This document shows, one piece after another, positions 947 to 64,000 of a stretch of DNA of 64,000 nt (position 1 is the first letter of the stretch; every line of letters begins with the position of its first letter). A program made the position numbers and the translations under genes. The DNA is from Alphaproteobacteria bacterium (lineage in GTDB: Bacteria; Pseudomonadota; Alphaproteobacteria; CALKHQ01), in the NCBI GenBank assembly GCA_965227515.1, contig CBDDFZ010000001.1:1673600-1737599 (forward strand). Direction: 5' to 3'. The notes below the pieces were generated by a model. That model saw only the letters and a program-made list of their open reading frames with translations, did not search any database and was not told where the DNA came from.

Positions 947-974
947 TCGTGACCAGCTTGCGCTGACTTGGCAA

Positions 975-2756: not shown

Positions 2757-2790
2757 TGTGGCGTGGTCCAATGCTGTCGAGCCAAGGAGG

Positions 2791-4455: not shown

Positions 4456-4465
4456 GACGATTCCT

Positions 4466-4521
4466 CCCGTATCCAACTGCCCGTATCCAACTGCCCGTAT
4501 CCAACTGCCTGTGTCCGACGG
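4466..4521. repeat. 14-bp tandem repeat CCCGTATCCAACTG: three perfect copies plus one degenerate copy
   Basis: Read directly: 4466-4479, 4480-4493 and 4494-4507 are identical. 4508-4521 (CCTGTGTCCGACGG) has 4 mismatches. The array fills the gap between the upstream gene's stop (4523) and the sqr SD (4461-4468). Confidence 0.9.
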
Positions 4522-4522
4522 C

Positions 4523-5407
4523 TCAGAGGCCGTTGATCGGCAGCTTGAGCATCTGCCGGCCGCTGGGATCGGTGGGGATATCGCCGGCACGCATGTTGAC
4601 CTGCAGCGACGGCAGGATCAGGCGCGGCATGTCCAGGGTGGCGTCACGCGCGGTACGGAACTTGACGAACTCCTCGCGTGTCTTGCCGCCACCGACATGG
4701 ATGTTCTTGGCCTTCTCGGCGCCGACCGTGGTCTCCCATTCGATGTCGCGGCCGTCGGCGCCGTAGTCGTGGCACATGAACAGGCGGGTCTCGTCCGGCA
4801 GCGCCAGCACCTTCTGGATCGAATCGTAGAGGGTGCCGGCATCGCCGCCCGGAAAGTCGGCGCGTGCGGAGCCCGCATCGGGCATGAACAGGGTGTCGCC
4901 GACGAACGCGGCATCGCCGATCACGTGGACCATGCATGCCGGGGTGTGGCCGGGGGTGTGCATGGCGAACCCGGTCATGCCGCCGATGGTGTAGGTGTCG
5001 CCGTCCTTGAACAGGGCGTCGAATTGGCTGCCGTCGCGCTTGAACTCGGTCCCTTCGTTGAAGAACTTGCCGAAGGTCTCCTGCACCACGACGATCTTGT
5101 CGCCGATGCCGATCTTGCCGCCCAGCTTGGCCTGGATGTACGGCGCGGCGGACAGGTGGTCGGCGTGGACGTGGGTCTCGATGATCCACTCCAGCTTCAG
5201 GCCACGGTCGGTGATGTCGGCGATGATCTCGTCGGCGTGCTCGAAGCTGATGCGGCCGGCGGCATAGTCCAGGTCCATCACCGAATCGACGACCGCGCAG
5301 GACGACGAGCCGGGGTCCTTGACCACATAGCTGATGGTGTTGGTGTCCGGCTCGAAGAACGCCTTGACGTCCGGCTTCACGGAAATGTCGACGGGATATT
5401 GTGTCAT
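4523..5407 (-). CDS. MBL-fold persulfide dioxygenase-like hydrolase (Blh/ETHE1-type)
   Basis: ORF 4523..5455 trimmed to ATG 5407 with a GGAGGAAG SD. THVHADH metal motif. Sits immediately upstream of sqr on the same strand. Confidence 0.8.
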   Translation of the reverse strand: MTQYPVDISVKPDVKAFFEPDTNTISYVVKDPGSSSCAVVDSVMDLDYAAGRISFEHADEIIADITDRGLKLEWIIETHVHADHLSAAPYIQAKLGGKIGIGDKIVVVQETFGKFFNEGTEFKRDGSQFDALFKDGDTYTIGGMTGFAMHTPGHTPACMVHVIGDAAFVGDTLFMPDAGSARADFPGGDAGTLYDSIQKVLALPDETRLFMCHDYGADGRDIEWETTVGAEKAKNIHVGGGKTREEFVKFRTARDATLDMPRLILPSLQVNMRAGDIPTDPSGRQMLKLPINGL

Positions 5408-5467
5408 TGCTTCCTCCGGTTGGCGGGATTTGCGCCAACCGTAGAGCAATGTCACGCACCGATCAGT

Positions 5468-5505
5468 GATCTAGTCACGGAAGGTGGAACGTCGGTGACT
5501 AGATC
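5468..5505. promoter_or_regulatory. Perfect 11-bp inverted repeat GATCTAGTCAC-N16-GTGACTAGATC, 60-100 bp upstream of the dioxygenase gene
   Basis: Arms at 5468-5478 and 5495-5505 read directly; the flanks extend the symmetry imperfectly. Could be an operator or an RNA stem-loop. Confidence 0.35.
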
Positions 5506-5526
5506 GGGATCAGCTTACGCTGAATC

Positions 5527-5608
5527 TGCGCCGGCCCTCTCCCCCACCCGGCCACCCAGCAGGATACTGTCGTTGGGCGGCCGGGTGGGGGAGAGGGCCG
5601 GTGCCGAC
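5527..5608. repeat. REP-like palindromic intergenic element (family 'CCCTCTCCCCCACCCGGCC'), copy 1
   Basis: Arms 5527-5557 and 5575-5608 are reverse complements. Nearly identical to 18608..18703. Confidence 0.8.
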
Positions 5609-5623
5609 TTAAATGATCATGCT

Positions 5624-6286
5624 CTAGTGTCCCGCGTGGGCCAGTTCGCCGAGCGACGTCTCGTCGGTGATGGTGACCATACCGCGGGTCTGGTTCAGCC
5701 AGCCGCGGCGATGGAACTCCTGCAACTGGCGCGACACCACCTCGCGCGCGGTGCCGAGTTCGGAGGCGAGCTGCTGGTGGGTCGCCGCCACCTGGTGCGC
5801 CGGCGTCTGCAACTCCAACAGCTTCTGGGCCAGGCGGATGTCCATGCGCCGGAACGCCACTTCCTCGATCACCAGAAACAGGTCGGTGATGCGCTTGGAG
5901 TAGGCGGAGAAGACGAAGCGGCGGAACACCTCCGACGACGCGACCAACTGGTCGAACACCCGGCGCGGAATGGCGACCGCCTCGACATCGGTCTCGGTGA
6001 TGCCTTCGGCCAGATAGTCCTCATAGGCCAGCAGGCAGGCCGTGGTCAGCACGCAGCTTTCGCCCGCATGCACCCGGTAGAGCACGATCTCGCGCCCGCT
6101 CTCCGACACCTGCTGCACCCGCACCGTGCCGTCGAGCAGCAGCAGCATGTTTTCCGGCGCCTTGCCGGGCCCGAAGATGACGGTGCCTTTCGGCACCGAT
6201 ACCACGGCGCTCTCGCCCACCAGCAGGTCGCGGATCTCCGGCTTCAGGCTGGCCAGTCCGGGGAAGTTGGCGATCCACTCCGTCAT
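5624..6286 (-). CDS. Crp/Fnr-family transcriptional regulator
   Basis: 220 aa with an N-terminal cNMP-binding-like beta-roll and a C-terminal HTH (ASELGTAREVVSRQLQEF). Confidence 0.85.
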   Translation of the reverse strand: MTEWIANFPGLASLKPEIRDLLVGESAVVSVPKGTVIFGPGKAPENMLLLLDGTVRVQQVSESGREIVLYRVHAGESCVLTTACLLAYEDYLAEGITETDVEAVAIPRRVFDQLVASSEVFRRFVFSAYSKRITDLFLVIEEVAFRRMDIRLAQKLLELQTPAHQVAATHQQLASELGTAREVVSRQLQEFHRRGWLNQTRGMVTITDETSLGELAHAGH

Positions 6287-6295
6287 GGCGGCATC

Positions 6296-7753
6296 CTACG
6301 CCGAATTGCCGCCGCGCGTATCGCCTGTGATGTCCCTGTACAGCGCGTCGTAGGCGAGGGCGGATTGGTCCCAGCCCACCGGATGCGCCATCGCGCGGCG
6401 CTGCATGGTGCGCCACGCCTTGGCATCGGCGAAGACGTCGCAGGCGGTGGCCAGCGCCTGGGCCAGCGCATCGGCCGTCACCGGTGCGAACTGGAAGCCG
6501 GTGGCGACACCAGCCCGCATGGCGGCGTCGTTGGCGTCGATCACGGTGTCGGCCAGCCCGCCGGTGCGCGCCACGACCGGCAACGTGCCATAGCGCAGCC
6601 CATAGAGCTGGGTCAGGCCGCACGGCTCGAAACGGGACGGCACGACGATGGCGTCGGCGCCCGCCTGCATCAGGTGCGACAGCGCCTCGTCATAGCCGAT
6701 GCGCACGCCCAGCCGCTCCGGCATGCGGCGGCGTGCGCCCATGAAGGCATCCTCCAGGGCGGTGTCGCCGGCCCCCAGCAGCACCAGGCTGGCGCGCTCC
6801 AACAGCGCGGGCAGGGCCTCCAGCAGCAGGTCCAGGCCCTTCTGCGCGGTCATCCGGCTGACCACGCAGAACAGCGGGCGGTCGGGGCAGGGCGCGATCT
6901 CGAACGCGCTGGCCAGGGCGGCCTTGTTCTTCGCCTTGCCTGATATCGCCCGCGCGGAATAGCTGGCGGCGATGTGCGGGTCGGCGGCCGGGTTCCACAC
7001 GTCCAGGTCGATGCCGTTCAGGATGCCGCTGAGGTCGCCGGCCCGCCCGCGCAGCACCCCGTCCATCCCCATGCCGAACGCGGGCGTCATCAGCTCGCGC
7101 GCGTAGGTGGGGCTCACGGTCGTCAGCCGGTCGGCATAAACCAGACCCGCCTTCAGCATGCTGACCTGGCCGTAGTATTCCAGGCCCTCCGGCGTGAACA
7201 TGGCGGCCGGAATGTCCAGGGCGGACAGCGTCTCGGCCGGAAACAGCCCCTGGAAGGCGACGTTGTGGATGGAGATCACGGACGGGATCGCCGGACCCTT
7301 GGCGCCGCGCAGATAGGCCGGCACCAGGCCCGCCTGCCAGTCGTGGCAGTGGACAAGGTCGGGCCGCCAGCCGTCCGCCCCCTTTGTCGCGATGTCCGTC
7401 GCCACCCGGCAGAGCGCGCCATAGCGCAAATGGTTGTCCGGCCAGTCGCGCCCGTCCGGCCCCAGATAGGGGTTGCCCGGCCGGTCGAACAGGTGCGGCG
7501 CATCCAGCAGCAGCAGGTCCAGTCCGGCCGTCTTGCCCGCCAGCACGTTCGCCTTGCCGCCAAAAAGGGCCTTGTAGCTGGCCGCCGGCGTTGCGTCCGA
7601 CAGCTTGCCGGCGAGCCCCCGATAGGCCGGCAGCAGCACCCGCACCTCGTGGCCCAGGGTGGCGAGCGCCTGTGGCAGCGCGCCGACGACATCGGCCAGC
7701 CCGCCGGTCTTGACCAGCGGCGCGCACTCCGACGCCACGAACAGGATGCGCAT
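6296..7753 (-). CDS. glgA: Glycogen synthase
   Basis: MRILFVASECAPLVKTGGLADVVGALP N-terminus. 485 aa with collinear GT5 family features. Confidence 0.95.
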   Translation of the reverse strand: MRILFVASECAPLVKTGGLADVVGALPQALATLGHEVRVLLPAYRGLAGKLSDATPAASYKALFGGKANVLAGKTAGLDLLLLDAPHLFDRPGNPYLGPDGRDWPDNHLRYGALCRVATDIATKGADGWRPDLVHCHDWQAGLVPAYLRGAKGPAIPSVISIHNVAFQGLFPAETLSALDIPAAMFTPEGLEYYGQVSMLKAGLVYADRLTTVSPTYARELMTPAFGMGMDGVLRGRAGDLSGILNGIDLDVWNPAADPHIAASYSARAISGKAKNKAALASAFEIAPCPDRPLFCVVSRMTAQKGLDLLLEALPALLERASLVLLGAGDTALEDAFMGARRRMPERLGVRIGYDEALSHLMQAGADAIVVPSRFEPCGLTQLYGLRYGTLPVVARTGGLADTVIDANDAAMRAGVATGFQFAPVTADALAQALATACDVFADAKAWRTMQRRAMAHPVGWDQSALAYDALYRDITGDTRGGNSA

Positions 7754-9025: not shown

Positions 9026-9268
9026 GGTCCCGATCTCCTCCCGTTCGCCTCCGTGTCGCACCCATTGTAGGGCGTGTGCCGTGGCGCGCCAGCCGTGTCT
9101 CCGCCGCCTTGCGTTTTTCGTGGCTGCCATTCGATGGCGACGCATGGTCGCTTGCAATGGCCGGCTCCGCGGGCCTGCGTTATTGTTGCGCCGAACCGGG
9201 CCGCGCCACCACCATGGACTGGCACAAGGCCCCGGCACAAATCAGCTATTACAGGGATTTTTCGGGAC

Positions 9269-10375
9269 ATGAATGGACCATTTCGAGCCGACCACGTTGG
9301 CAGCTTCCTGCGGCCGCCCCGCCTGATCGAGGCGCGCAAGCGGTTTGCCGACGGCGAGTGCACGGCTGAAGACTTGCGCGAGGTGGAGGACGACTGCATC
9401 CGCGAGGTCGTGGGCAAGCAGCAGGATGTGGGCCTGCGCGGCATCACCGACGGCGAGTTCCGCCGCACCTTCTTCCACGTCGATTTCCTGGAGCACCTGG
9501 ACGGCGTGACCGTGACCGAGGGCAAGTTCGTGGCCAGGTTCCGCAAGTCCGACGGCACCGACCTCGGCTTCAACCCGCCGACCATGAAGGTGACCGGCAA
9601 GCTCGGCCACACCCATTCCATCCAGGGCGCCGACTTCGACTATCTGAAGTCGGTCGTGTCGGCGACGCCGAAAGTCACCATTCCGGCACCGTCCATGCTG
9701 CACTTCCGCGGCGGCCGCGAGGGCATCTCCAGCGAGGCCTACCCGGACCTGGACCAGTTCTATGACGACCTGACCGCGGCGTACCGCGACGAGCTTGCTG
9801 ACCTGGCCGACCGCGGCTGCCGCTATTTGCAGATGGACGACACCAACCTGGCCTATCTGTGCGACCCGGCGATCCGCGCCAAGACCAAGGAGCGCGGCGA
9901 CGACCCGGATGCACTGACCCGGCTCTATTGCCGGCTGGTCAATGATTCGATCCGGGACCGGCCCGACGACATGGTGATCGGCGTCCACCTGTGCCGCGGC
10001 AACTTCAAGAGCGCGTGGGTGGCGGAAGGCGGTTACGAGCCGGTGGCGGAGACGCTGTTCAACGAGATGGACATCGACGCCTTCTTCCTGGAGTACGACG
10101 ACGAGCGCTCGGGCGACTTCGCGCCGTTGCGCTTCATGCCCAAGGGCAAGACCGTCGTCCTCGGCCTGATGAGCTCCAAGCTGGCCGCGGTGGAAAGCGC
10201 CGACGACATCAAGAAGCGCATCGACGAGGCGGCGCAGTACGTGCCGCTGGACCAGTGCGCGCTGAGCCACCAGTGCGGCTTCTCATCCACCGCCCACGGC
10301 AACGAGCTGACCGACGAGGACCAGTGGCGCAAGCTGGAGCGGTGCGTGGAGGTGGCGCGCGACGTTTGGGGCTGA
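9269..10375 (+). CDS. Cobalamin-independent methionine synthase II (MetE C-terminal-like) family protein
   Basis: ORF 9074..10375 trimmed to ATG 9269. FRADHVGSFLRPPRL...ITDGEFRR N-terminus and CGFSS near the C-terminus are typical of this family. Confidence 0.85.
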   Translation: MNGPFRADHVGSFLRPPRLIEARKRFADGECTAEDLREVEDDCIREVVGKQQDVGLRGITDGEFRRTFFHVDFLEHLDGVTVTEGKFVARFRKSDGTDLGFNPPTMKVTGKLGHTHSIQGADFDYLKSVVSATPKVTIPAPSMLHFRGGREGISSEAYPDLDQFYDDLTAAYRDELADLADRGCRYLQMDDTNLAYLCDPAIRAKTKERGDDPDALTRLYCRLVNDSIRDRPDDMVIGVHLCRGNFKSAWVAEGGYEPVAETLFNEMDIDAFFLEYDDERSGDFAPLRFMPKGKTVVLGLMSSKLAAVESADDIKKRIDEAAQYVPLDQCALSHQCGFSSTAHGNELTDEDQWRKLERCVEVARDVWG

Positions 10376-10377
10376 TG

Positions 10378-10404
10378 CCGGCGCCACCGAGCGACGGCGC
10401 CGGT
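10378..10404 (+). terminator. Weak hairpin after the MetE-like gene
   Basis: CCGGCGCC (10378-10385), a 10-nt loop, then GGCGCCGG (10396-10403). Only TT follows, so this is not a classic intrinsic terminator. Confidence 0.25.
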
Positions 10405-10515
10405 TGCCGCTCAGGGGAACGTGCGTTGACGCTCGGGTCCTGAGACGCCACAGTAGATGCATTCTAAATAAGGTCCGGATCGCGAACCCGGTCCACGTTG
10501 GGGAGGATCAATCGC

Positions 10516-11559
10516 ATGTCACTGAACAAAGCCAAGCTGCTCGGCATTCTGGGGACGGCCACGGCCCTGGCCGCGCTGTCCAATGCCGCCAGCGCGCAGG
10601 AGTACACGCTGACCCTGCATCACCTGTTGGGGCCGCAATCGCCGGCGCACACCAACATGCTGCAGCCGTGGGCGGACCGGGTGAACGAGGCGACCGACGG
10701 CCGGGTGCTGATCGAAATCTACCCGGCCATGTCGCTCGGCGGGGCGCCGCCGGAGCTGATCAATCAGGTGCGCGACGGCGTCGTCGACCTGATCTGGACG
10801 GTCAACGGCTACACCGCCGGCCTGTTCCCGCGCTCAGAGGTGTTCGAACTGCCGTTCGTGCACACCAACGATACGGTCGCGACCAACCTGGCGATGGCCG
10901 AGTTGTTCGACGAGTTTCTGGCCGAGGAGTACCAGGGCACCAAGGTGATGTGGACCCACGTCCACGCCGGACAGGCGATCCACATGGTGGATCAGGAGGT
11001 CCGCTCGCCGGCCGACCTGGACGGCCTGGAAATGCGCATTCCGACCCGCACGGGCGCCTGGGTGCTGGAGGCGTTGGGCGCGATCCCGACCAGCATGCCG
11101 GTGCCCGACCTGCCGCAGGCGCTCTCGCAGAAGGTGGTGGACGGGGCGTTGATCCCGTTCGAGATCATCCCGCCGCTGGGCTTGCAGGACCTGACCCAGT
11201 ACCAGATCGAGGGCCACGACTCGATCCGCTTCGGGACCACGACGTTCCAGGTCTCCATGAACATCGACACCTGGGAGAGCCTGCCCGAGGACATTCAGCA
11301 GGCGATCGAGGAGGTCAACAGCGAGGCGTGGCTGCGCGAGGTTGGCGAGATGTGGACGGCGGCGGAGACCGGTGGCCTGAACATGGCGATCGAGGCCGGC
11401 AACACGCACATCCAGCTCAGCGAGGAAGAGATTCAGGCTTTCCGCGACGCGTTGGAGCCTGTGGTCGAGCGCTGGATCGAGGATGTCGAGTCGCAGGGCA
11501 TCGACGGCCGCGCGCTGGTGGAAGCGGCCCGCGAGGCGATTGCGCGCCACGCGCAATAG
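10516..11559 (+). CDS. TRAP transporter substrate-binding protein (DctP family)
   Basis: ATG 10516 follows GGGGAGGA. Signal peptide ending AASAQE; DctP-like sequence; followed by Q and M subunit genes. Confidence 0.85.
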   Translation: MSLNKAKLLGILGTATALAALSNAASAQEYTLTLHHLLGPQSPAHTNMLQPWADRVNEATDGRVLIEIYPAMSLGGAPPELINQVRDGVVDLIWTVNGYTAGLFPRSEVFELPFVHTNDTVATNLAMAELFDEFLAEEYQGTKVMWTHVHAGQAIHMVDQEVRSPADLDGLEMRIPTRTGAWVLEALGAIPTSMPVPDLPQALSQKVVDGALIPFEIIPPLGLQDLTQYQIEGHDSIRFGTTTFQVSMNIDTWESLPEDIQQAIEEVNSEAWLREVGEMWTAAETGGLNMAIEAGNTHIQLSEEEIQAFRDALEPVVERWIEDVESQGIDGRALVEAAREAIARHAQ

Positions 11560-11568
11560 CGCCGTCTC

Positions 11569-12087
11569 GTGACAGATCAGACGTTGACGCGGGCGGGGCC
11601 TCTGGGTCTCGCCCGCTGGGTCATTATGGCCTGGGCGGTGGCCGGCGGGGTGGTGCTGCTCGCCCTGGTGCTGTTCACCGCCATCAGTCTGGTCTCCAAC
11701 AAGTTCCTCGGTGAGTCGCTGCCCGGCGAGTACGAGATGGCCGAAGTCGGCGTGGCCATCGCCGCGTTCGCGTTCCTGCCCTACTGCCAGCTTATCGGCG
11801 GCAATGTCAGCGCCGATATCTTCACCCAGCGGGCAGGCCGGCGGACGGTCGCCATCCTGACCATGATCGGTGCCGTGGTGGCGTTCCTGTTTGCAGCACT
11901 GCTGCTGTGGCGGATGAGCCTGGGCATGATCGACACCAAGGGCTATGGCCTGAAGACGGCGATCCTGGGCTTCCCGATCTGGATCGCCTTCATCCCCATA
12001 CTGGTGTCGCTGTTCCTGCTGGTCGTCGCGTCCTTCATTTCGATCCTGGAAGCCGGGCGCGACACCAAGCGTTCCGCGCAGACCTGA
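11569..12087 (+). CDS. TRAP transporter small permease (DctQ family)
   Basis: 172 aa with four hydrophobic segments, positioned between the P and M subunit genes. GTG start. Confidence 0.75.
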   Translation: MTDQTLTRAGPLGLARWVIMAWAVAGGVVLLALVLFTAISLVSNKFLGESLPGEYEMAEVGVAIAAFAFLPYCQLIGGNVSADIFTQRAGRRTVAILTMIGAVVAFLFAALLLWRMSLGMIDTKGYGLKTAILGFPIWIAFIPILVSLFLLVVASFISILEAGRDTKRSAQT

Positions 12088-12112
12088 GCGCATATCGGGG
12101 CGGACGCGGCGG

Positions 12113-13435
12113 GTGGAATACAACCTTCTCATAGGCCTTGCCGGCCTCGTCTGCCTGATCGGGCTGATCGCCCTGCGCATGCCGATCGCCTACAGCATGA
12201 TCCTGATCGGCGCGGTGGGGACGGTCATTCTCAGCGGGCCCAACGCACTGTTGGGCCAGCTCAAGAGCCTGGGCTACAGCGTCTTCTCCAACTACGGGCT
12301 GTCGGTGGTGCCGATGTTCGTGCTGATGGGCGCGATCGCCACCAAGTCCGGGCTGAGCCGCGACCTGTTTCGTGCCGCCAACGCCTGGCTGGGCTGGATG
12401 CGCGGCGGCGTGGCGATCTCCGCCATTGCCGCCTGCGCCGGCTTCGGCTCGGTCTGCGGCTCGTCGCTGGCCACCGCATCGACCATGGGCAAGGTCGCCC
12501 TGCCGGAGCTCAGGCGCTACAACTACGCGCCGTCACTGGCCACCGGCACGCTCGCTGCCGGCGGTGTGCTCGGCATCCTGATCCCGCCATCTGTGGTGCT
12601 GGTGGTCTACGCCATCATTGTCGAGGCCAACATCGTGGCCATGTTCATGGCCGCGTTCCTGCCCGGCCTGATCGCGGTCATCCTGTTCTGCATCACCATC
12701 GGCATCTATGTGCGCTTGCGGCCCAATGCCGGCCCGCCGGGCGAGCGGGTGTCGCGCGCCGAACTGGGGGCGGCGACCGTGCGCGTGTTGCCGGTGCTGG
12801 TGATCTTCGGCCTGGTCATCGGCGGCATCTATTTCGGGTTCTTCAACCCGACGCCGGCCGCCGCGATTGGCGTGTTCCTGGTCGCGGTCTACGGCATCGG
12901 CCGCGGCTTGGTGCGGCTGCCGGAAATGCGCGACGCGCTGCTGGAGACCGCCAAGACCACGGGCATGATCTATCTGATCCTGCTGGGGGCGGAACTGCTG
13001 AAGATCTTCATGGCGCGCGGGCGCGTGCCGCAGGCCGCCGCCGACATGATCGTCAATTCCGGCCTGTCGCCCTACATGGTGCTGGTTCTGATCCTGCTGG
13101 CGCTGATCCTGCTTGGCTGCCTGATGGACAGCCTGTCGATGATCCTGCTGGTGATCCCGTTCTTCTGGCCGGCGATCTCGGCGCTCGACTTCGGCATGCA
13201 TCCGGACGAGTTGAAGATCTGGTTCGGCATCCTGGCCCTGATCGTGGTCGAGCTGGGCCTGATCACACCACCGGTGGGCCTGAACGTGTTCGTCATATCG
13301 GAAATGGCCAAGGACGTGCCGATGCGCGACACATTCCTTGGCGTGATGCCGTTCTTTGCGGCGGAGATCGTGCGGGTCTCGATCATTATCGCATTCCCGA
13401 CGCTGGCGCTGATCGGACCGCAGCTCCTGCTTTGA
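12113..13435 (+). CDS. TRAP transporter large permease (DctM family)
   Basis: 440 aa polytopic membrane protein with a DctM-like sequence. GTG start. Confidence 0.9.
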   Translation: MEYNLLIGLAGLVCLIGLIALRMPIAYSMILIGAVGTVILSGPNALLGQLKSLGYSVFSNYGLSVVPMFVLMGAIATKSGLSRDLFRAANAWLGWMRGGVAISAIAACAGFGSVCGSSLATASTMGKVALPELRRYNYAPSLATGTLAAGGVLGILIPPSVVLVVYAIIVEANIVAMFMAAFLPGLIAVILFCITIGIYVRLRPNAGPPGERVSRAELGAATVRVLPVLVIFGLVIGGIYFGFFNPTPAAAIGVFLVAVYGIGRGLVRLPEMRDALLETAKTTGMIYLILLGAELLKIFMARGRVPQAAADMIVNSGLSPYMVLVLILLALILLGCLMDSLSMILLVIPFFWPAISALDFGMHPDELKIWFGILALIVVELGLITPPVGLNVFVISEMAKDVPMRDTFLGVMPFFAAEIVRVSIIIAFPTLALIGPQLLL

Positions 13436-13495
13436 GCGGACTTTGATGCGAATGCGCTGAAGCGCAGATACTGCGTGAGCGACAAACACCTGGCA

Positions 13496-13676
13496 TCGTC
13501 GCCCTCGCCCTTGTGGCGAGGGCCCATGCAAGTGCGGGACTCCTACTGTCCGGGGTTTGTTCGAAGTCGATGCAGCAATGCCCGCGGGGCAATTGCCACG
13601 CCGTTCGGCGTCAGCCACCTAATACGTTGGCGTATTGGACGAGAATGGGTCCTCGCCACAAGGGCGAGGACGACGA
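13496..13676. mobile_element. MITE-like ~181-bp element with hairpin-forming terminal inverted repeats, copy A
   Basis: Left end is TCGTCGCCCTCGCCCTTGTGGCGAGGGCCCAT; right end is ATGGGTCCTCGCCACAAGGGCGAGGACGACGA. The internal core is homologous to 20159..20339 and, in inverted orientation, to 38957..39134. Confidence 0.65.
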
Positions 13677-13714
13677 GAGGGAACGTCGGCGGCTCGGCCT
13701 ACGCGAAGAACGAG

Positions 13715-14440
13715 CTAATCGAACAACTGGTCGATGTCGTCCTGCGAGATGCCCTCGGCGCCGGTCGACGGGCCGCTGAGCGCGACATCGTCGTCCATCG
13801 AGCCGTCGTCCAGCGTCACCGGCATCGCCTCCAGCTCGCCGGTGCCCCAAACGTCGGCCATCCGGTTCAGCCGCTCTTCGATGTACTTGATGACCTCGAC
13901 GACCTTGCGGGTCCGCTGCCCGGTGATGTCCTGGAAGTTCGACGCTTCGTAGATCGAGGTGATCGCGTCGCTCATCTTGTCGGTGCAGTTCGCGATGAAC
14001 TGGTCGTCGGAGTTGGCGTCCCGCACCTGACCGATCAGGTCTTCCAGCGTCTCCGCCATCGCCAGGATGGAGGACGTCGCGTCCTCGGTCTGCTCGACGA
14101 TCAGGTCCATCTGCCGGCTGGCCCGCGCAAATTCGTCGTTGGGCGAGTTCGGGTGGCGCAGGGCGGCGATCTCTTCCTTCGTGGTCTTGATGCGATCCTG
14201 CATGTCGAAGACGTCGCGCACCAGCCGGTCTTCGATCTCTTCCAGCTTCGGCAGCGCATTGACCTTCACGTCCAGGGCCTTCAGCGACTCCTGGATTTCG
14301 GCGATCGCCTTCGCGGCGTCCTCGCTCAAGCCAGCGGGGCCATCCTGGTTGGCGGGCGGGCCCAATAGACCGCCCGGCCGCCCGTTCTGTGGCTTCCTGC
14401 GCTCGATGGTGAAAACCTTGCGGCCGGCGGCTGCGTTCAT
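13715..14440 (-). CDS. cheZ: CheZ-like CheY-P phosphatase
   Basis: ORF 13715..14458 trimmed to ATG 14440 (AAGGA SD). SNFQDITGQ matches the CheZ catalytic DFQDLTGQ motif. Acidic C-terminal peptide QDDIDQLFD. Confidence 0.7.
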   Translation of the reverse strand: MNAAAGRKVFTIERRKPQNGRPGGLLGPPANQDGPAGLSEDAAKAIAEIQESLKALDVKVNALPKLEEIEDRLVRDVFDMQDRIKTTKEEIAALRHPNSPNDEFARASRQMDLIVEQTEDATSSILAMAETLEDLIGQVRDANSDDQFIANCTDKMSDAITSIYEASNFQDITGQRTRKVVEVIKYIEERLNRMADVWGTGELEAMPVTLDDGSMDDDVALSGPSTGAEGISQDDIDQLFD

Positions 14441-41322: not shown

Positions 41323-42717
41323 ATGGCTGATTCCGCCACCGCCCGTGACGATGAGGCCGTGGACGAGGCCGCCAGCCACTTCGGACTGGGCGACGCCGAC
41401 ATCCGTGAAGTCGTCGAGGCGATCGACCAGAAGCGCTTCGACCAGGTGGCCGAAAAGGCGGCCTCACTGCATGGCGCCGACCTTGCCGACCTGATCGAAC
41501 AGGTCGGTGGCGAGCGCCGCGCGCTGCTGGTCAAAACGCTTCGCTCCCCGATCGATCCCGACCTGCTGTCGCACCTGGACGGCGACATCCGCGAGACCGT
41601 GATGGGCCTGCTGCGGCCGGCGGACCTTGCCGCGGCCCTCAGCGAGATGGAGAGCGACGACGCTCTCGAACTGATCGAGGACCTGGACGACGAGCAGCAG
41701 GCCGCCATCCTGGAAAAGCTGCCGGCGCCGGACCGCGCCATCGTCGAGCAGGGGCTGGCCTACCCCGAGGACAGCGCCGGGCGCCTGATGCAGCGCGAGT
41801 TCGTGATGGTGCCGATGTACTGGACCGTCGGCGAGACCATCGACCATCTGCGCGCCACCAAGGACCTGCCCGACGACTTCTTCGACATTTTCGTCGTCGA
41901 CCCGCGCCTGAAGCTGGTGGGCATCGCGCCGCTCAGCCGCCTGATGCGCAACCGCCGCCCGACCAAGGTCGCCGACCTGATGACCGAGGAGGTGCGCCGC
42001 ATCCCGGCCGAGATGGATCGCGAGGACGTGGCCTACATCTTCCGCCAATACGGGTTGGTCGACGCCCCGGTGGTGGACGACGACGGCCGGCTGCTGGGCG
42101 TGGTGACGGTGGACGACGTGGTCCACGTGCTGGGCGAGGAAACCGAAGAGGACATGCTGAAGCTGGCCGGCGTGCAGGAGTCCGACCTGTTCAACGCCGC
42201 GCTGAAGACGGCGCGCACCCGCTTCACCTGGCTGTTCATCAATCTGATCACCGCGATCCTGGCGTCCGCGGTCATTGCGCTGTTCGAGGCGACCATCCAG
42301 CAAATCGTGGCGCTGGCGGTGCTGATGCCAATCGTGGCGTCGATGGGCGGCAACGCCGGCACCCAGACGCTGACGGTCGCGGTGCGCGCGTTGGCGACCA
42401 AGGACCTGTCGTCCGCCAATGCGGCGCGTGTCATCGGCAAGGAACTACTGGTCGGCCTGCTGAACGGCATCGTGTTCGCCGTGCTGACGGGCGTTGCCGC
42501 CTATCTGTGGCTGTCGTCATGGGAAATCGGCACCATCATCGCCTGTGCCATGGTCTTCAACCTGGTGGTGGCGGCATTCTTCGGCGCGTTCATTCCGATT
42601 ATCCTGGAGCGCGTCGGCGTGGATCCGGCGGTGGCGTCCAGCGTGCTGCTGACCACGGTGACCGACATCGTGGGCTTCCTGGCCTTCCTGGGTCTGGCCG
42701 CGGTCTTCCTGCTCTAG
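41323..42717 (+). CDS. mgtE: Magnesium transporter MgtE
   Basis: N-domain, tandem CBS domains and a C-terminal 5-TM domain with GGNAGTQ and TDIVGF motifs. Confidence 0.95.
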   Translation: MADSATARDDEAVDEAASHFGLGDADIREVVEAIDQKRFDQVAEKAASLHGADLADLIEQVGGERRALLVKTLRSPIDPDLLSHLDGDIRETVMGLLRPADLAAALSEMESDDALELIEDLDDEQQAAILEKLPAPDRAIVEQGLAYPEDSAGRLMQREFVMVPMYWTVGETIDHLRATKDLPDDFFDIFVVDPRLKLVGIAPLSRLMRNRRPTKVADLMTEEVRRIPAEMDREDVAYIFRQYGLVDAPVVDDDGRLLGVVTVDDVVHVLGEETEEDMLKLAGVQESDLFNAALKTARTRFTWLFINLITAILASAVIALFEATIQQIVALAVLMPIVASMGGNAGTQTLTVAVRALATKDLSSANAARVIGKELLVGLLNGIVFAVLTGVAAYLWLSSWEIGTIIACAMVFNLVVAAFFGAFIPIILERVGVDPAVASSVLLTTVTDIVGFLAFLGLAAVFLL

Positions 42718-42751
42718 CCACCCACCCGTCGCCGCTTCCGGTCGGGCATTT

Positions 42752-42833
42752 GCATTTTGCAAAAGCCGTTTTCATGACAGATCGTTAATTTTCGCATTTT
42801 GCAATCGAACCGGCGGTTCGTCGTGCAAAGTGC
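42752..42833. promoter_or_regulatory. Three copies of GCAYTTTGCA (two direct, one inverted); one copy includes the perfect palindrome TTTTGCAAAA
   Basis: GCATTTTGCAA at 42752-42762 and 42794-42804 (42-bp spacing). TGCAAAGTGC (the reverse complement of GCACTTTGCA) at 42824-42833. Palindrome at 42755-42764. Confidence 0.3.
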
Positions 42834-43224
42834 GATGATACGCCGGCTGCCGAAGCCGCGCCGACGATGTGCCGATCTCGGCTATCCTACGGAAATTTCA
42901 CATTTTTTTCGGCGGACGTCGGGACGTTCGCCGGGGTCGCCGCCGTTCCAGTGTCAATGGCACGCGCCTTGCGCATGTCCCTGCAATCGTTGTCATCGCC
43001 GCATTAGGCTCGATGCAACGATCAACGGAGGCAGCATTGGCAAATCGTACGAACGTTTCGTCGCATGCCCTGTCGGCTGTTCGCCCTCGGCGATCCACGA
43101 GGGCGCTTCGGCCGTATGACAACACACGGCAGCGACCAACGATCCGCGATGACGCGTACTCATCCGTTGGCGGCATGACCGCATCCCCCCGAACGCAGGT
43201 GCAGCCGGAAGGAATTTTCCAACC

Positions 43225-57464: not shown

Positions 57465-57921
57465 GATATCGCTCCGGAGTCGTGCGTTGCCGGTAGGTCG
57501 CAGCCGGCGTGGGCCCGGTTCATTGCCTCTTGCGGGCGCGCACGCGTGCCTTCGATGTTGGACACATCGCGCTCTGGGACCATATTGTCGGATGCGATTA
57601 GCGGCGATTCCGCCGTTCGCGGGCGCTTGACCGTGAAAATCGGGCCCTCGGCCGTTAAGATTCAGGCTCGACCCGACGCTGGTCTGTTTGTATCAAATGG
57701 GGATGTGTCCGGCAGGTAGGCCGGATGGCATCATCAAGCCCGGTGGGGAAGAAAAGGGGAGTCATGCCGGCTCTGAAAAACCAGCCACCTCGTGGATTGA
57801 CCGGTGCGCCTCTTGTCAGCTTCGCTGCGCCGGCATGTGCGGCTCTTGGGTCCGCGCATGTGCCTGCATGCCATCGCCCATACCATCGCCACGTGGGTTT
57901 GCGAGGCGCCTGGATAGACGC

Positions 57922-60900
57922 ATGAACAAGCAGGTCACCACCAAGCGCGGCCGCCTGAACATCGCCGAAGGCAGCGCCCCCACACAGCCCGACGCGCAGG
58001 AGCTTTCGCACCTGTACCGCGCGATGCTGACGGCGCGCGAGATCGACCGGGTCGAGGATGTGGCGACCCGGCGCGGCGAGGCGTTCTTCCACGTCTCCGG
58101 CAAGGGGCACGAGGGCTCGGCGGCGCTGGCGCTGCACCTGACCAACGACGACTGGCTGCACTGCCACTATCGTGACAAGGCGCTGATGGTGGCACGCGGC
58201 ATCACCGCGCGCGCGTTCTTCGACGGCTTCTATTGCAAGGACGCCTCGCATTCGCGCGGGCGCCAGATGTCGGCCCATATGTGCGATGCCTCGCTGCGCG
58301 TTGCCAGCGTGTCCGGCCCGGTCGGCAATGGCGCGTTGCATGCTGTGGGCATGGCGCTGGCCGGCAAGGACATGGAGACCCGGCCCATCGTGCTGTTCTC
58401 CTGCGGCGACGGCACCACGCAGGAGGGCGAGTTCCTGGAGTCGTGCGCCGAGGCGGCGCGCGCGGAAGCCCCGGTGCTGTTCTTTGTCGAGGACAATGGC
58501 TGGGCGATCTCCACGCCGACCGCCGGCAAGACGTTCTATGCCCTGCATGCGCAGCGGCCGGACGCCTTCCACGGTATCCCGATCCACCGCATCGACGGGC
58601 GCGACGCGATCCAGGCGTGGCGCGAGCTCGGGCCCATCGTTGCGCGCATGCGGCGCACCCGCCAGCCCGCGATCGTCGTGTTCCAGGTCGCGCGCATCGC
58701 CAACCACACCAACGCCGACGACCAGTCGATCTACCGCGACGCGGCCGACATCAAGCTGGCCGAGGAAACCTGCGACCCGATCCCGATCCTGGAAGACCAG
58801 CTCCTGGACATGGGGTGGAGTGCCGCCGATCTGGCGGCGGCCAAGGACGAGATCGCGCGCCAGGTGGCGGAGGCCGATGAGGCGGCGGCCTTCGGGCCCG
58901 ACCCCGAGCCGATGCTGACGGCCGACGTGGCGCCGTCGGCTGCGGTCGCGGAGGCGTTGCAGCCCGGTCGTGCGCGCAAGCCCGCCGCGGCGCCGGCGCC
59001 CGCCGCGGTGCCGAACACGCCGCAGACCATGGGCGAGGCGATCCGTGCCGTGCTGCGCGGCCGGCTGGCCGACGACCCGCGCGTCTATCTGTGGGGCGAG
59101 GACATCGAGGACCCGAAGGGCGACGTATTCGGCGTAACCAAGGGCCTCAGCACCCAGTTCCCGAAGCGCGTGGTCAACGCGCCGCTGACCGAGTCCACCA
59201 TCGTCGGCGTCGCCATCGGCCGGGCGATGGCCGGCGAGCGCCCGGTGGCGTTCCTGCAGTTCGCCGATTTCCTGCCACTTGCCTACAACCAGATCGTCAG
59301 CGAGCTGGGCAGCATGGCGTGGCGCACCGACGGCGCCTTGACCGCGCCTGTTATCATCATGGTGCCGTGCGGCGGCTATCGCCCCGGTCTGGGGCCGTTC
59401 CACGCCAGTTCGTTCGAATCGCTGATGACCCACACGCCGGGCATCGACGTGGTGATGCCGTCGACAGCGGAGGATGCGGCCGGCCTGCTGAACGCCGCCT
59501 TCGAGTCAACCCGGCCGACGGTGTTCTTCTATCCCAAGAGCTGCCTCAACGACCCGCGCGGCGCGATGACCGGCGATGCCGGCCAGGTCAGGCTGACGCC
59601 CGGATCGGCGCGCAAGGTGCTGTCGGGCCGCGACCTGACAATGGTCGGCTGGGGCAACACCGTGCGGCTGTGCGAGCAGGCTGCCGAGGCGCTGGAGAAA
59701 GCCGGTGTCGAGGCCGAGGTGTTGGACCTGCGCAGCCTGGGGCCCTGGGACAAGCGGGCGGTGCTGTCGTCGGCGGAGACCAGCGGCCGGCTGCTGGTGG
59801 TGCACGAGGACAACCACACCAACGGCTTCGGCGCCGAGATTCTGGCGACGGTCGGCGAGCAGTGCCGCACCCATGTGGCCATGCGCCGGGTGACCCGGCC
59901 CGACACCTATGTGCCGTGCAATTTCGCCAACCAGATCGAGGTGTTGCCGTCGTTCAAGCGGGTGCTGGAAACGGCGGCCGACATGCTGGACATCGACGTC
60001 GAATGGACGCCGCCGCCGGCCGCCGAGGAAGGCATCGTGCTGGTCGAGGCCATCGGGTCCGGCCCGACCGACGAGACCGTCGACGTGGTCGAGCTGATGG
60101 TCGAGGTCGGCCAGACTGTCGAGCGCGGCGAGGAGATCGCGGCCCTTGAGGCGATCAAGAGCGTGTTCGAGCTGACCTCGCCCGCCTCCGGCGTGATTGA
60201 GGAGATCGTCGTCGGGATCGGCGAGACGGTGCCGGTCGGTGCGCCGCTGATGAAGATCCGCACCGACGACACCACCCAGCGCGCCAAGCCCTTGACCCAC
60301 GAGGCGCCCGGCACGCCCACCCTGACCCGGCGCGCCAAGCCGGCGGCACCGGCTGTTGCCGGCAGGGGCGAGGGCGCCGCGGCCCAGCCGGCCGGCACGC
60401 TCAGGGTCGGGCTGTCGCAGGTCGCCACCGTCACCGGCAGCCGGGTGGTGCCGAACGAGGAACTGGTACAGGGCCGCACCGACGACACCTACCGCGATGC
60501 GGAGAAGCTGACCGGCATCCGCGCCCGCCATTGGGCGGCGGAGGGCGAGACGGTGCTGTCGCTCGGCGTGCGCGCGGTGCGTGCGGCGCTGGAGGCGAAC
60601 GGGCTCACCGCCGACGACCTCGACCTCGTGATCTGCAGCACGACCACGCCAGATCAGGTGACGCCCTCCGTGGCCTATCGCATCCTGCGCGATGTTGCCG
60701 GCGAGCGCGGCAACCCGGCGGTGGCCGCCTATGACATCAATGCGGCATGCTCGGGCTATCTCTACGCGCTGCAGGCCGCGCACGACTTCCTGCAGAACCA
60801 GCCGCAAGGCCGTGTGCTGGTGGTGACGGCCGAGGTGCTGTCGCGGCTGCTGGACCGCGACGACCCGTCGACCGTGCTGGTGTTCGGCGACGCGGCGTCG

Positions 60901-61353
60901 GCCACCGTGGTCTATGGCGACGCGCATTTCGATGGCGCTGCCGCGCGCCTGTTCCGCCCTGATATCTCCGGAAAGAGCGACGACCGCAACGCGCTGACCG
61001 TGCCGGTGCCAGGCCAGGGCTATGTGCGGATGGACGGCCAGCGGGTGTTCCGCGAGGCGGTGCGCGCCATGGTCGGCAGCCTGAACCGGGTCTGCGCCGG
61101 CCAGGGGCTGGGGCTCGGCGACCTGGACATGGTGGTGCCGCACCAGGCCAACCAGCGCATCATCGACGCCATCGCGCAGCGCACCGGCGCCAACGCCTAT
61201 TCCAACATCAAGCATTTCGGCAACACGTCGTCGACCAGCATTCCGTTGTGCCTGGCCGAGGTGCTGCCCGACGCGCCGGCCGGCCAGCGGCTGGGCCTGT
61301 GCGCCTTCGGCGGCGGCTATACCTACGCGGCCGCGGTGCTGGAAACCGTCTAG
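57922..61353 (+). CDS. Fusion protein: TPP-dependent 2-oxoacid dehydrogenase E1-alpha + E1-beta + lipoyl-type domain + FabH-like KAS III
   Basis: ORF 57688..61353 trimmed to ATG 57922 (1143 aa). Has the TPP motif GDGTTQEGEF...EDNGWAIS, E1-beta NAPLTESTIVGVAIG, lipoyl-like LEAIKSVFEL, and a KAS III triad (C943 NAACSGY, H1074 VPHQANQ, N1101 GNTSSTS). Confidence 0.85.
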   Translation: MNKQVTTKRGRLNIAEGSAPTQPDAQELSHLYRAMLTAREIDRVEDVATRRGEAFFHVSGKGHEGSAALALHLTNDDWLHCHYRDKALMVARGITARAFFDGFYCKDASHSRGRQMSAHMCDASLRVASVSGPVGNGALHAVGMALAGKDMETRPIVLFSCGDGTTQEGEFLESCAEAARAEAPVLFFVEDNGWAISTPTAGKTFYALHAQRPDAFHGIPIHRIDGRDAIQAWRELGPIVARMRRTRQPAIVVFQVARIANHTNADDQSIYRDAADIKLAEETCDPIPILEDQLLDMGWSAADLAAAKDEIARQVAEADEAAAFGPDPEPMLTADVAPSAAVAEALQPGRARKPAAAPAPAAVPNTPQTMGEAIRAVLRGRLADDPRVYLWGEDIEDPKGDVFGVTKGLSTQFPKRVVNAPLTESTIVGVAIGRAMAGERPVAFLQFADFLPLAYNQIVSELGSMAWRTDGALTAPVIIMVPCGGYRPGLGPFHASSFESLMTHTPGIDVVMPSTAEDAAGLLNAAFESTRPTVFFYPKSCLNDPRGAMTGDAGQVRLTPGSARKVLSGRDLTMVGWGNTVRLCEQAAEALEKAGVEAEVLDLRSLGPWDKRAVLSSAETSGRLLVVHEDNHTNGFGAEILATVGEQCRTHVAMRRVTRPDTYVPCNFANQIEVLPSFKRVLETAADMLDIDVEWTPPPAAEEGIVLVEAIGSGPTDETVDVVELMVEVGQTVERGEEIAALEAIKSVFELTSPASGVIEEIVVGIGETVPVGAPLMKIRTDDTTQRAKPLTHEAPGTPTLTRRAKPAAPAVAGRGEGAAAQPAGTLRVGLSQVATVTGSRVVPNEELVQGRTDDTYRDAEKLTGIRARHWAAEGETVLSLGVRAVRAALEANGLTADDLDLVICSTTTPDQVTPSVAYRILRDVAGERGNPAVAAYDINAACSGYLYALQAAHDFLQNQPQGRVLVVTAEVLSRLLDRDDPSTVLVFGDAASATVVYGDAHFDGAAARLFRPDISGKSDDRNALTVPVPGQGYVRMDGQRVFREAVRAMVGSLNRVCAGQGLGLGDLDMVVPHQANQRIIDAIAQRTGANAYSNIKHFGNTSSTSIPLCLAEVLPDAPAGQRLGLCAFGGGYTYAAAVLETV

Positions 61354-61372: not shown

Positions 61373-61828
61373 ATGACGGTCCGACGCCGGTCTCTTGCAC
61401 TCACCGCTCTGATCGTCGGCGTGCTCGGCGGTCCGTCGTTGAGCGCGGCCGGCGACATTCAAGGGTCCTACTGCGGGCACATTTTCTCGGCCGGCGCCAA
61501 CGAGGCCGGCTACACCCGTTTCGTCACCGACAAGGGCGTGATCACGGGGGCCTATTCGTTTGTCGACAGCGTCCAGGGTGGCGTCATCGAGCGCGGCAGC
61601 CTTACCGATTGCGCGCTCGATCCCGACGATCCATCCATGATTGCGTGCACGTGGGCCGATGCCTTCGGCGAGGGGCGGTTCGAGGCGCAGTTTTCCCCTG
61701 ATGGCGCACGTTTTCGCGGCCATTGGTCCCCGGAAGCCGAACCGGCGCTGATCTTTCCCTGGACGGGCGAGCGCCTTGGTGCGGACGTGTCCGAGGAAAG
61801 CTGCATCGGCTCGGACGCCTATTCCTGA
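61373..61828 (+). CDS. Secreted protein, function unknown
   Basis: Signal peptide MTVRRRSLALTALIVGVLGGPSLSAAG. Starts 19 nt after the fusion gene's stop. Confidence 0.55.
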   Translation: MTVRRRSLALTALIVGVLGGPSLSAAGDIQGSYCGHIFSAGANEAGYTRFVTDKGVITGAYSFVDSVQGGVIERGSLTDCALDPDDPSMIACTWADAFGEGRFEAQFSPDGARFRGHWSPEAEPALIFPWTGERLGADVSEESCIGSDAYS

Positions 61829-62639: not shown

Positions 62640-62692
62640 CAATTGCCTCGCTCTTTCTGTCCTTCGATGGCGTTCGGATAACTTCCGATCAT

Positions 62693-62722
62693 TTGACATT
62701 CTTTCTTGGCCGTGCCTACGCT
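62693..62722 (+). promoter_or_regulatory. Candidate promoter TTGACA-N18-TACGCT
   Basis: -35 at 62693-62698 and -10 at 62717-62722. Lies 33 nt upstream of ATG 62755, in an AT-richer divergent region. Confidence 0.35.
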
Positions 62723-62754
62723 CGATCATCGGGTTTGCAGAAGGCGTTCCCCCA

Positions 62755-63327
62755 ATGGCCGACTTCCCGATTCCGATTGGCGTGGACCGCATGCTACGCG
62801 ACATCGCGGAGGGCATAGGCGGCGCCGCGCGCATACTCCCCACGGTATCCCGGTCCGAGGTCGGAGCGGTTGCCATGCGCCGCGCCACGGTCGCCATCGA
62901 CTTCGAGCTTAGCAGCGCCGCAAAGCGGACAGATGACAGCATCGGTCTGGGCGCAAAGACCTTCCTGTTCGGTTTCGGTGCGTCGACGGAAACGACCGAG
63001 ACGAAGGTGCTGAACCACGGCCGGATCGAGATGGAGATCGTCGCCATCGTCGAACCGGAGGAGGGTGAGCGACCGAAGACCGCCACGCCGGCTCAACCCG
63101 GCCCGCCCGTGAAGGCGCCAACTCCCCTGAGCGCAGATCAGATTCGCCAGGCCCTGGCGATAATCCAGGGGGAACTCCACAACCTTCCCCTGGACGAGGA
63201 GGCACGCGGGAAAATCGAGGCCAAGATCGCGGAAATACACGCTGCGATATCGGCTGGCGACCTGCACCTCGCCAATGAATTGCTGCAATATATCAAGGAC
63301 ATTGTGCAGGAAGTCCTGAACCCCTGA
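62755..63327 (+). CDS. Small protein with a beta-rich 'trypco2-like' core, a Pro-rich linker and a helical tail
   Basis: 190 aa. Core is RRATVAIDFELSS...KTFLFGFGAS...GRIEMEIVAIV. Lower G+C than the host. Confidence 0.5.
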   Translation: MADFPIPIGVDRMLRDIAEGIGGAARILPTVSRSEVGAVAMRRATVAIDFELSSAAKRTDDSIGLGAKTFLFGFGASTETTETKVLNHGRIEMEIVAIVEPEEGERPKTATPAQPGPPVKAPTPLSADQIRQALAIIQGELHNLPLDEEARGKIEAKIAEIHAAISAGDLHLANELLQYIKDIVQEVLNP

Positions 63328-63356
63328 GCCGCGCCCCCGCCATATGAGAGGCTGTC

Positions 63357-63785
63357 ATGCCTGACGTTGAAATGAGCCTGGAGGATTTGTTGGACGAATA
63401 TGTGGGCCCGATCATTGGGGACGGCGTCCTGGTGACGGTGAAGAACATGATCAACGAAAATCTGCTGGACACAAAGGTCAAGATCCCCATTCCCAGCGAT
63501 ATCATCGACAGCCTGACGGGTGGCGGAGGCGATGACAGTGGGGGCGACGACGGTGGATGGCAGTCGAACAACCTGCCGCCAATTCCGCCCCTGGTGCCGA
63601 TCGAGCCCAAGGCTGCGATGAACGCGATCGCGGCCGCCGTGCGCGATGCCGAGAAGATACTGAACATGGAGAACCTGGCCATCGGCGGGGCGGGCATCGA
63701 CGTGTCGCTGGTCGTTGATGTGGCCGGGGTCGCCGGCGCCAACGCCAACTTCAAGATCACCATCGGGCCGACCCCCAGGCCCTGA
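63357..63785 (+). CDS. Small protein with a Gly/Asp linker and a C-terminal 'trypco2-like' beta module
   Basis: GAGAGG SD. 142 aa. The C-terminus GIDVSLVVDVAGVAGANANFKITIGP parallels the core of the preceding protein. About 50-52% G+C by hand count. Confidence 0.5.
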   Translation: MPDVEMSLEDLLDEYVGPIIGDGVLVTVKNMINENLLDTKVKIPIPSDIIDSLTGGGGDDSGGDDGGWQSNNLPPIPPLVPIEPKAAMNAIAAAVRDAEKILNMENLAIGGAGIDVSLVVDVAGVAGANANFKITIGPTPRP

Positions 63786-63812
63786 ACCGGTTTTCAGTCA
63801 GGAGATAGCGAC

Positions 63813-64000
63813 ATGGCTTTCAGCACTGCGATTTCAGTTGGCGCGTTCTCGGTCGTCCTGGCGGAGACGTTCGCCGCGGTGGCCGCTTCGACCCTGGTGC
63901 CGGCCACCTTCCTGGCCGTCGTGCGCGCCGCCAAGAAGGCCAATGCCCCCGACGACGAGGTCAATGCCGCCGACATGCTGATCGACCGGATGTCCGGCGT
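63813..64000 (+). CDS. Unknown protein, 3' end outside the window (not in the ORF track because there is no stop codon)
   Basis: ATG 63813 lies 8 nt after AGGAGA. The frame is open to the window end. N-terminus MAFSTAISVGAFSVVLAETFAAVAAS... is hydrophobic. Confidence 0.45.
   Translation, partial: MAFSTAISVGAFSVVLAETFAAVAASTLVPATFLAVVRAAKKANAPDDEVNAADMLIDRMSG

Follow-up and report, generated by a model that had tools for sequence, protein, structure and literature searches.

A rare, conserved three-gene operon of small helix-hairpin proteins at the edge of an alphaproteobacterial contig window, and its unproven likeness to Trypco2/Pepco modules

We describe a three-gene cassette at the edge of a 64,000-nucleotide (nt) stretch of DNA from an Alphaproteobacteria bacterium (GenBank assembly GCA_965227515.1, contig CBDDFZ010000001.1, positions 1,673,600 to 1,737,599 of the forward strand). 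This whole stretch is referred to below as the window, and the region under study covers its positions 62640-64000. The genes, designated g1, g2 and g3, form a very rare, conserved and uncharacterised operon without annotation, and we are highly confident of its anatomy as a self-contained, chromosomal three-gene unit with a vertical and sporadic distribution. Comparison with relatives supports the homology of a helix-hairpin block in the first and third proteins. More tentatively, at a probability of roughly 0.35, we propose that the three products form a membrane-associated hetero-oligomeric assembly built from such blocks. An earlier reading of the same DNA, the original prediction, had taken the region for a Trypco2-like module of a bacterial conflict system whose decisive partner genes would lie just past position 64000. 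Its observation was partly confirmed and its interpretation partly supported; the practical result of our analysis is a correction, namely that no Trypco-protease-NTPase conflict system is hidden at the window edge.

The cassette genes lie on the forward strand, with g1 at 62755..63327 (an open reading frame (ORF) of 190 amino acids (aa)), g2 at 63357..63785 (142 aa) and g3 at 63813..64000, where the first 62 codons fall within the window and the ORF runs past its end. All three ORFs were found at the positions originally predicted, with the third leaving the window, and the peptides quoted at the time are present in the translations. As read from the sequence, good Shine-Dalgarno sites precede g2 (GAGAGG, 63346-63351, forward strand, 5 nt before the ATG) and g3 (AGGAG, 63800-63804, forward strand, 8 nt before the ATG). 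The suggestion that both g1 and g2 are preceded by such a site thus holds for g2, whereas the site of g1 is weak (GAAGG, 13 nt upstream).

The window itself stops within g3, and the loci of relatives served for the context of the cassette. The order g1-g2-g3, with short spacers, is kept in all 11 related genomic contexts, and the proteins typically measure ~190, ~140 and ~146 aa, respectively. The cassette loci comprise an ilvD-linked set (L001-L009 and L023), the cultured Bauldia litoralis ATCC 35022 (L013), metagenome-assembled genomes (MAGs) of Bauldia and other alphaproteobacteria (L011 and L014), a JGI contig (L022), a 1.07 Mb metagenome contig in which the cassette adjoins uvrA (L024), a Spirulina MAG (L025/L026; L025 is Spirulina sp. 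MAG GCA_044070495.1), a 513 kb contig in which it adjoins fmt and tsaE (L027), and a groundwater contig (L028). Hosts of the known copies are therefore Alphaproteobacteria, one Spirulina MAG and unclassified metagenome contigs. Close homologs number nine for g1 and four for g2, all of them either without a name or labelled 'hypothetical', and a word-index search for homologs of the 62-aa g3 fragment returned no match. When 1.84 billion representative proteins were searched with a profile, the g1 family amounted to 103 cluster representatives at 50% identity.

The cassette also occurs in an expanded form. In two distant lineages, at L025 (5783-8360) and L027 (8001-10567), the g1 protein reaches ~400 aa and its helical region at the C-terminus is longer, and two g2 paralogs are present. 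The copy number of g2 thus follows the length of g1, a g1 of ~190 aa being accompanied by one g2 and a g1 of ~400 aa by two, which hints that the helical domain of g1 and the g2 protein may interact stoichiometrically.

We modelled the g1 protein as a monomer with AlphaFold2 from a 97-sequence alignment, obtaining a mean predicted local distance difference test score (pLDDT) of 84.6; this model supersedes an earlier one from 9 sequences, in which the N-domain reached a pLDDT of 59. In the model, an amphipathic helix (aa 10-31) is followed by an amphipathic beta-hairpin with 16 residues per strand (aa 43-58 and 81-96) and a disordered tip, a Pro/charged linker (aa 97-126; 28% Pro, 24% charged) and a very confident three-helix bundle (aa 127-188). 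The strand end and linker read ...EIVAIV-EPEEGERPKTATPAQPGPP. In both strands, hydrophobic residues alternate with acidic or polar ones throughout the family, within which identity to g1 is only ~17-35%, and the helices of the modules are likewise amphipathic (mu_alpha 2.0 for g1).

The g2 orthologs follow g1 at every locus. From its sequence pattern, the g2 protein is predicted to consist of an N-terminal region, a Gly/Asp/Pro-rich linker (aa 53-84), a helix (aa 84-106) and a short beta-hairpin (aa 107-138), and its C-terminus ends in a conserved GPTPRP. The window fragment of g3 aligns with full-length g3 from seven loci (145-164 aa in relatives), and a larger alignment holds 11 g3 orthologs. 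The hydrophobic N-terminus that had been noted for gene 3 is indeed present and is extremely conserved: it forms a segment of ~35 residues with conserved Glu18 and Pro30 and Kyte-Doolittle 19-residue maxima of 1.6-2.0. As seen in relatives, the C-terminal half of g3, beyond the window end, bears a g1-like helix-hairpin domain. The most constrained of the three proteins is g3: between Spirulina and Alphaproteobacteria, its N-terminal ~35 residues and its C-terminal domain hardly change. We rejected an identity of this N-terminus as a type IV/Flp prepilin, since conservation does not extend to the Gly that precedes the hydrophobic stretch. The window copies and their full-length and divergent orthologs had no significant match in Pfam, NCBIfam, PADLOC or PHROG, the weak PHROG matches ('virion structural protein', E 0.009-0.23) falling short of significance, and searching PDB sequences with profiles of g1, g2 and g3 brought up only generic helical noise.

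The relationship among the modules of the three proteins became visible with deep profiles. With shallow profiles, hhalign did not match the three families to one another (E 0.1-0.26; g1 versus g2, E 0.26). A deep g1 profile was then aligned with g2 and g3 alignments that included divergent orthologs, with reversed sequences as controls. The g1 N-domain aligned with the g3 C-domain over 83 columns spanning helix, strand 1, loop and strand 2 (E 1.3e-5, probability 81%; reversed controls E >= 0.27), and a hidden Markov model (HMM) of the g1 N-domain matched 7/7 g3 orthologs tested. The comparison of g1 with g2 gave E 0.003 and a probability of 11% over 41 columns covering the helix and strand 1 (reversed controls E 0.08-0.12), and that of g2 with g3 gave E 0.4 and a probability of 0.15% with nothing meaningful aligned (reversed controls E 0.18-0.23). 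On the strength of these alignments and of the HMM matches, homology of the g1 N-domain and the g3 C-domain is supported, and that of the g1 and g2 modules is suggestive only. Accordingly, the originally proposed paralogy of proteins 1 and 2 is suggestive, in the very register that had been put forward, while the firm homology lies instead between g1 and g3. The common block comprises an amphipathic alpha-helix and, after it, a likewise amphipathic beta-hairpin, hydrophobic on one face and acidic or polar on the other; it is N-terminal in g1, C-terminal in g3 and probably C-terminal in g2.

Upstream of g1, a candidate sigma-70-like promoter element lies on the forward strand at 62693..62722 (TTGACA at 62693-62698, an 18-nt spacer, and TACGCT at 62717-62722), ~33 nt before the start codon. 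In an alignment of g1 upstream regions, TTGACA-N18-TA[CG][GA]CT is kept in 7/8 loci (the window together with L001, L005, L011, L013, L014 and L023), whereas the surrounding DNA fails to align; it thus seems that the cassette brings along a sigma-70-type promoter of its own. A generic consensus promoter scan missed this element because its -10 hexamer fits only three of the six consensus positions, and a generic terminator scan likewise gave nothing informative.

The region is also set apart by its base composition, if modestly. Its guanine-plus-cytosine (G+C) content is 62.2%, compared with a window mean of 68.0%; this places it in the lowest 0.4% of 1361-nt windows and it holds the window minimum, yet it is only ~2.4 standard deviations under the mean. 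G+C content at third codon positions (GC3) is 0.77-0.82 in the cassette genes versus 0.87-0.90 in neighbouring genes, and the dip stems partly from amino-acid content and from an intergenic spacer at 52% G+C. The hand counts behind the claim of a lower-G+C cassette proved exact (63361-63420, 51.7%; 63421-63480, 50.0%; core line, 68.3%), and the claim itself stands in direction, with a signal that is real but modest in size. Elsewhere in the window, a second low-G+C stretch at 42000-43000 (500-nt windows of 0.594-0.608) reaches a depth comparable to that of the cassette.

We then considered the genes around the cassette, where the original prediction had placed a trypsin-like peptidase, STAND or vWA-MoxR partner. 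Past g3, the genes vary by locus (FAD/BBE oxidase, TPR protein, UbiE-type methyltransferase, serine hydroxymethyltransferase (SHMT), amidase-like, Metallophos and PRC), and those before g1 also vary (ilvD, an EVE-domain gene, uvrA and fmt; in the window, a short-chain dehydrogenase/reductase (SDR) gene on the opposite strand). The flanking genes are mostly housekeeping (ilvD, uvrA, fmt, glyA, SDR), and in three other lineages the cassette sits in a syntenic arrangement with ilvD, MatE, His_Phos and CYTH. None of the related loci that were fetched has the window's upstream genes, and the cassette therefore occupies a different chromosomal position in this genome. No conserved trypsin-like peptidase, STAND/NACHT or vWA-MoxR gene lies beside the cassette in the 11 related contexts, nor does the neighbourhood expected of Trypco2/Pepco, an adjacent trypsin- or caspase-like peptidase with a sensor, occur in them. 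What follows position 64000 in these relatives is only the rest of g3 and then unrelated, mostly metabolic or housekeeping genes, so that the conflict-system context and the predicted partners are largely refuted by the relatives.

Two protease genes at single loci were examined as candidate partners and set aside. At L001, the reverse strand of 4993-7255 holds a gene for a membrane-anchored, periplasmic-type protease of 613 aa whose C-terminal part is a Trypsin_2 domain, preceded by a gene for a 106-aa signal-peptide protein unrelated to the cassette. This pair is on the strand opposite to the cassette, 2.5 kb upstream of it and with ilvD in between, and was found at this one locus; we regard it as coincidental. 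At L025, a Peptidase_C14-GUN4 gene is preceded by a gene for a 141-aa protein that matches no cassette HMM and no Pfam family; the pair occurs once, is not adjacent to the cassette and was likewise rejected. The surroundings of the four-gene cassette at this Spirulina locus (176-5353 and 9156-13948) hold ORC/CDC6-like ATPase, Peptidase_C14-GUN4, MazE/PIN, RelE and RelB-like genes and look like a defence island.

Trypco1 and Trypco2 were introduced as small proteins whose genes lie next to those for trypsin-like peptidases of vWA-MoxR systems (Kaur et al. 2020, PMC7159879) and have since been renamed Pepco, for peptidase co-occurring domain (Evans et al. 2025, bioRxiv 10.1101/2025.11.14.688446). 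Pepco is described as a pre-assembled 9- to 10-mer beta-barrel that is hydrophobic outside, has a charged lumen and carries an amphipathic helix at its base; activation follows when proteolysis cuts off the C-terminal tail, rich in charged residues and Pro, behind a conserved Ile that ends the strand (Evans et al. 2025, 10.1101/2025.11.14.688446). Resistance of the barrels to SDS and toxicity upon the C-terminal cleavage are further marks of Pepco. We compared the cassette proteins with the Trypco2 model of Pfam (PF19631; gathering score 24.2 bits). No match at E <= 10 was obtained for g1, g2 or the partial g3, and none for full-length g3, for divergent g2 and g3 orthologs, or for consensus sequences of the g1 N-domain (the whole family and three subclusters), the g2 C-module and the g3 C-module. 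Neither the cassette proteins nor the profile consensus sequences had a Trypco2 match in NCBIfam, and g1, g2 and partial g3 had no match at E <= 10 among the defence-system HMMs of PADLOC-DB v2. Within the g1 family, 2 of 97 members match PF19631, one at E 0.002 and the other at E 0.099 (13.3 bits, model positions 11-77 of 78), both apparently sub-threshold. Dividing the better E-value by 24,736 models and multiplying by 97 members gives a chance estimate of ~8e-6, and the matches are unlikely to be pure chance because the family had been named in advance.

In layout, the likeness is closer. The cassette proteins, like Pepco, are small and non-enzymatic, and residues 1-126 of g1 present in the same order an amphipathic helix, amphipathic strands, a conserved aliphatic residue at the strand end and a Pro/charged tail. 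This architectural agreement, drawn from the AlphaFold2 model, the amphipathicity and the composition, is a likeness of layout and no proof of homology; no Pepco structure was found in the PDB, either by sequence or by fold. There are also differences. Whereas Pepco is a single protein of ~117 aa, the module here occurs in three different proteins of one operon; g1 adds a three-helix bundle after the tail, and g3 adds a hydrophobic N-terminal segment. The cassette proteins and their profile consensus lack a significant Trypco2 match, and in none of the 11 contexts was a gene for a serine or cysteine protease, a STAND protein or a vWA-MoxR pair found adjacent to it. The hosts differ as well, the cassette being found in Alphaproteobacteria and a Spirulina MAG and Pepco being described as prevalent in Actinobacteria and cyanobacteria. 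Membership of the cassette proteins in the Trypco2 family is thus not established, and the resemblance to Trypco2 that had been proposed, borne out in the layout of g1 and in the two sub-threshold matches while lacking any HMM match for the window proteins, their orthologs or consensus sequences, is plausible but unproven. A possible interpretation is that the cassette is a protease-less variant of Pepco-like barrel formers.

Other known systems offer partial parallels. A Foldseek search with the g1 model returned a weak list that included hairpins of assembled beta-pore-forming toxins and of ring proteins (E >= 0.4, TM-score <= 0.2). As in alpha-hemolysin, lysenin, aerolysin and the FliF RBM3 beta-collar, g1 has a long two-stranded amphipathic hairpin, and its ~16 residues per strand correspond to the length that spans a membrane or builds a collar in such toxins and ring proteins. 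Unlike g1, however, the toxins and FliF far exceed it in size, are built on unrelated core domains and are either secreted or part of large machines, and the Foldseek likeness is not significant. The gas-vesicle proteins GvpA/J/M are small alpha-beta-beta-alpha paralogs encoded in one cluster, and the cassette shares with them several small helix and beta-hairpin paralogs side by side, for which co-assembly would be expected; its module lengths and motifs differ from theirs. Identity as GvpA-like proteins was rejected, with no match to Pfam Gas_vesicle and no GvpN, GvpF or GvpL neighbours at any locus.

Taking the module anatomy, the conservation and the gene context together, we tentatively favour a membrane-associated hetero-oligomeric helix-hairpin assembly of g1, g2 and g3, in which co-assembly, membrane association and pore or barrel function are all proposed. 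In this picture, contacts between the hairpins of the three proteins would build a beta-barrel or ring of mixed subunits at the cytoplasmic membrane. As the best-conserved member, g3 would form the core and anchor it by its hydrophobic N-terminus. The longest hairpin would come from g1, whose three-helix bundle on its Pro/charged tether could cap or regulate the assembly, and g2, with a copy number that follows the length of the g1 helical domain, would be an adaptor. Such a mechanism would come closest to the pre-assembled pores of Pepco (Trypco1/2), minus a dedicated protease or sensor gene. A more specific version, to which we assign a distinctly lower likelihood, is a protease-independent relative of the Pepco type, a three-protein membrane barrel gated by the tethered helical bundle of g1 rather than by proteolysis; it would represent either a stand-alone membrane-permeabilising module, of an abortive-infection or stress type, or a new small inner-membrane beta-barrel. 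As to whether the proposed assembly would serve as an effector, its rarity, patchy distribution, relocation and lower GC3, together with the toxin-antitoxin and caspase surroundings in Spirulina, speak for that role, and the housekeeping flanks and partial synteny weigh against it in favour of a structural one.

The same observations bear on an alternative that we consider only slightly less likely, in which the three proteins form a non-toxic structural or housekeeping ring, scaffold or channel of the membrane or envelope, expressed constitutively and unrelated to immunity, with only a convergent likeness to Pepco. A sigma-70-looking promoter element, neighbours such as ilvD, uvrA, fmt/tsaE, glyA and SDR genes, the conserved placement between ilvD and MatE in three lineages and the very strong purifying conservation of g3 would all suit such a role, as would the lack of a significant Trypco2 match and the absence of the cassette from plasmids, phages and viral contigs. 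A family so scarce and so patchily distributed, with some 100 clusters (50% identity) in 1.84 billion representative proteins, would nevertheless be unusual for a housekeeping structure. The loci differ by lineage, moreover, with the window's upstream genes in none of those fetched; G+C and GC3 are under those of the host neighbours, and the Spirulina copy lies amid toxin-antitoxin and caspase-like genes.

Two further explanations appear very improbable to us. The reading from which the analysis started, a canonical Trypco2 module with a trypsin-like peptidase, STAND or vWA-MoxR partner just past 64000, can draw on the module layout, on the two sub-threshold matches among the 97 family members and on the Trypsin_2 gene 2.5 kb from the L001 cassette, and the evidence against it comes from relatives rather than from the source contig. 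In those relatives, however, g3 follows g2 in 11/11 contexts and varied unrelated genes come next; the L001 gene, of the membrane-anchored periplasmic type, stands behind ilvD on the opposite strand at one locus, and PADLOC gave no match. Both a missing HMM match and ordinary genes downstream had been named in advance as grounds for giving up the conflict-system reading, which in its stated form therefore fails and leaves only a resemblance. We give equally little credence to a remnant or cargo of a mobile element (a prophage, integrative element or plasmid) made up of orphan genes without a cellular role, which would account for the lower G+C, the reduced GC3, the chromosomal location that varies between lineages and the weak PHROG matches to virion structural proteins. 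Searches of 72,556 plasmids, 50,697 phage genomes and the IMG/VR contigs did not find the cassette, and on these grounds an origin from plasmids or phages was rejected. At the loci examined, its flanks hold no integrase, transposase or repeats, the PHROG matches are not significant, and all three genes together with the promoter are strongly conserved across phyla.

Should the proposed hetero-oligomeric beta-barrel prove true, the cassette would represent a minimal cousin, lacking both sensor and protease, of the Pepco pores described recently and a rare case of an inner-membrane beta-barrel built from three different small subunits, and the Trypco/Pepco fold would extend beyond protease-linked immune systems. 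If it is instead a housekeeping scaffold, it would add one more uncharacterised conserved small operon. The copy in Bauldia litoralis ATCC 35022, a cultured host, provides a route to testing.

Two ORFs that precede the SDR gene of the window were also observed. The one nearer to it, at 61373-61828 on the forward strand, encodes 151 aa with an apparent N-terminal signal peptide (MTVRRRSLALTALIVGVLGG...) and has no counterpart in any related locus fetched. The other, on the forward strand at 57688-61353 with a provisional start codon, encodes a 1221-aa protein that fuses 2-oxoacid dehydrogenase E1 alpha (aa 95-414) and E1 beta (446-768) parts to a KAS III/FabH domain (900-1218), with what appears by eye to be a lipoyl/biotinyl-like stretch between the domains. 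This E1-KAS III fusion is unusual and, judging from its domain content, would tie keto-acid decarboxylation to fatty-acid or polyketide priming.

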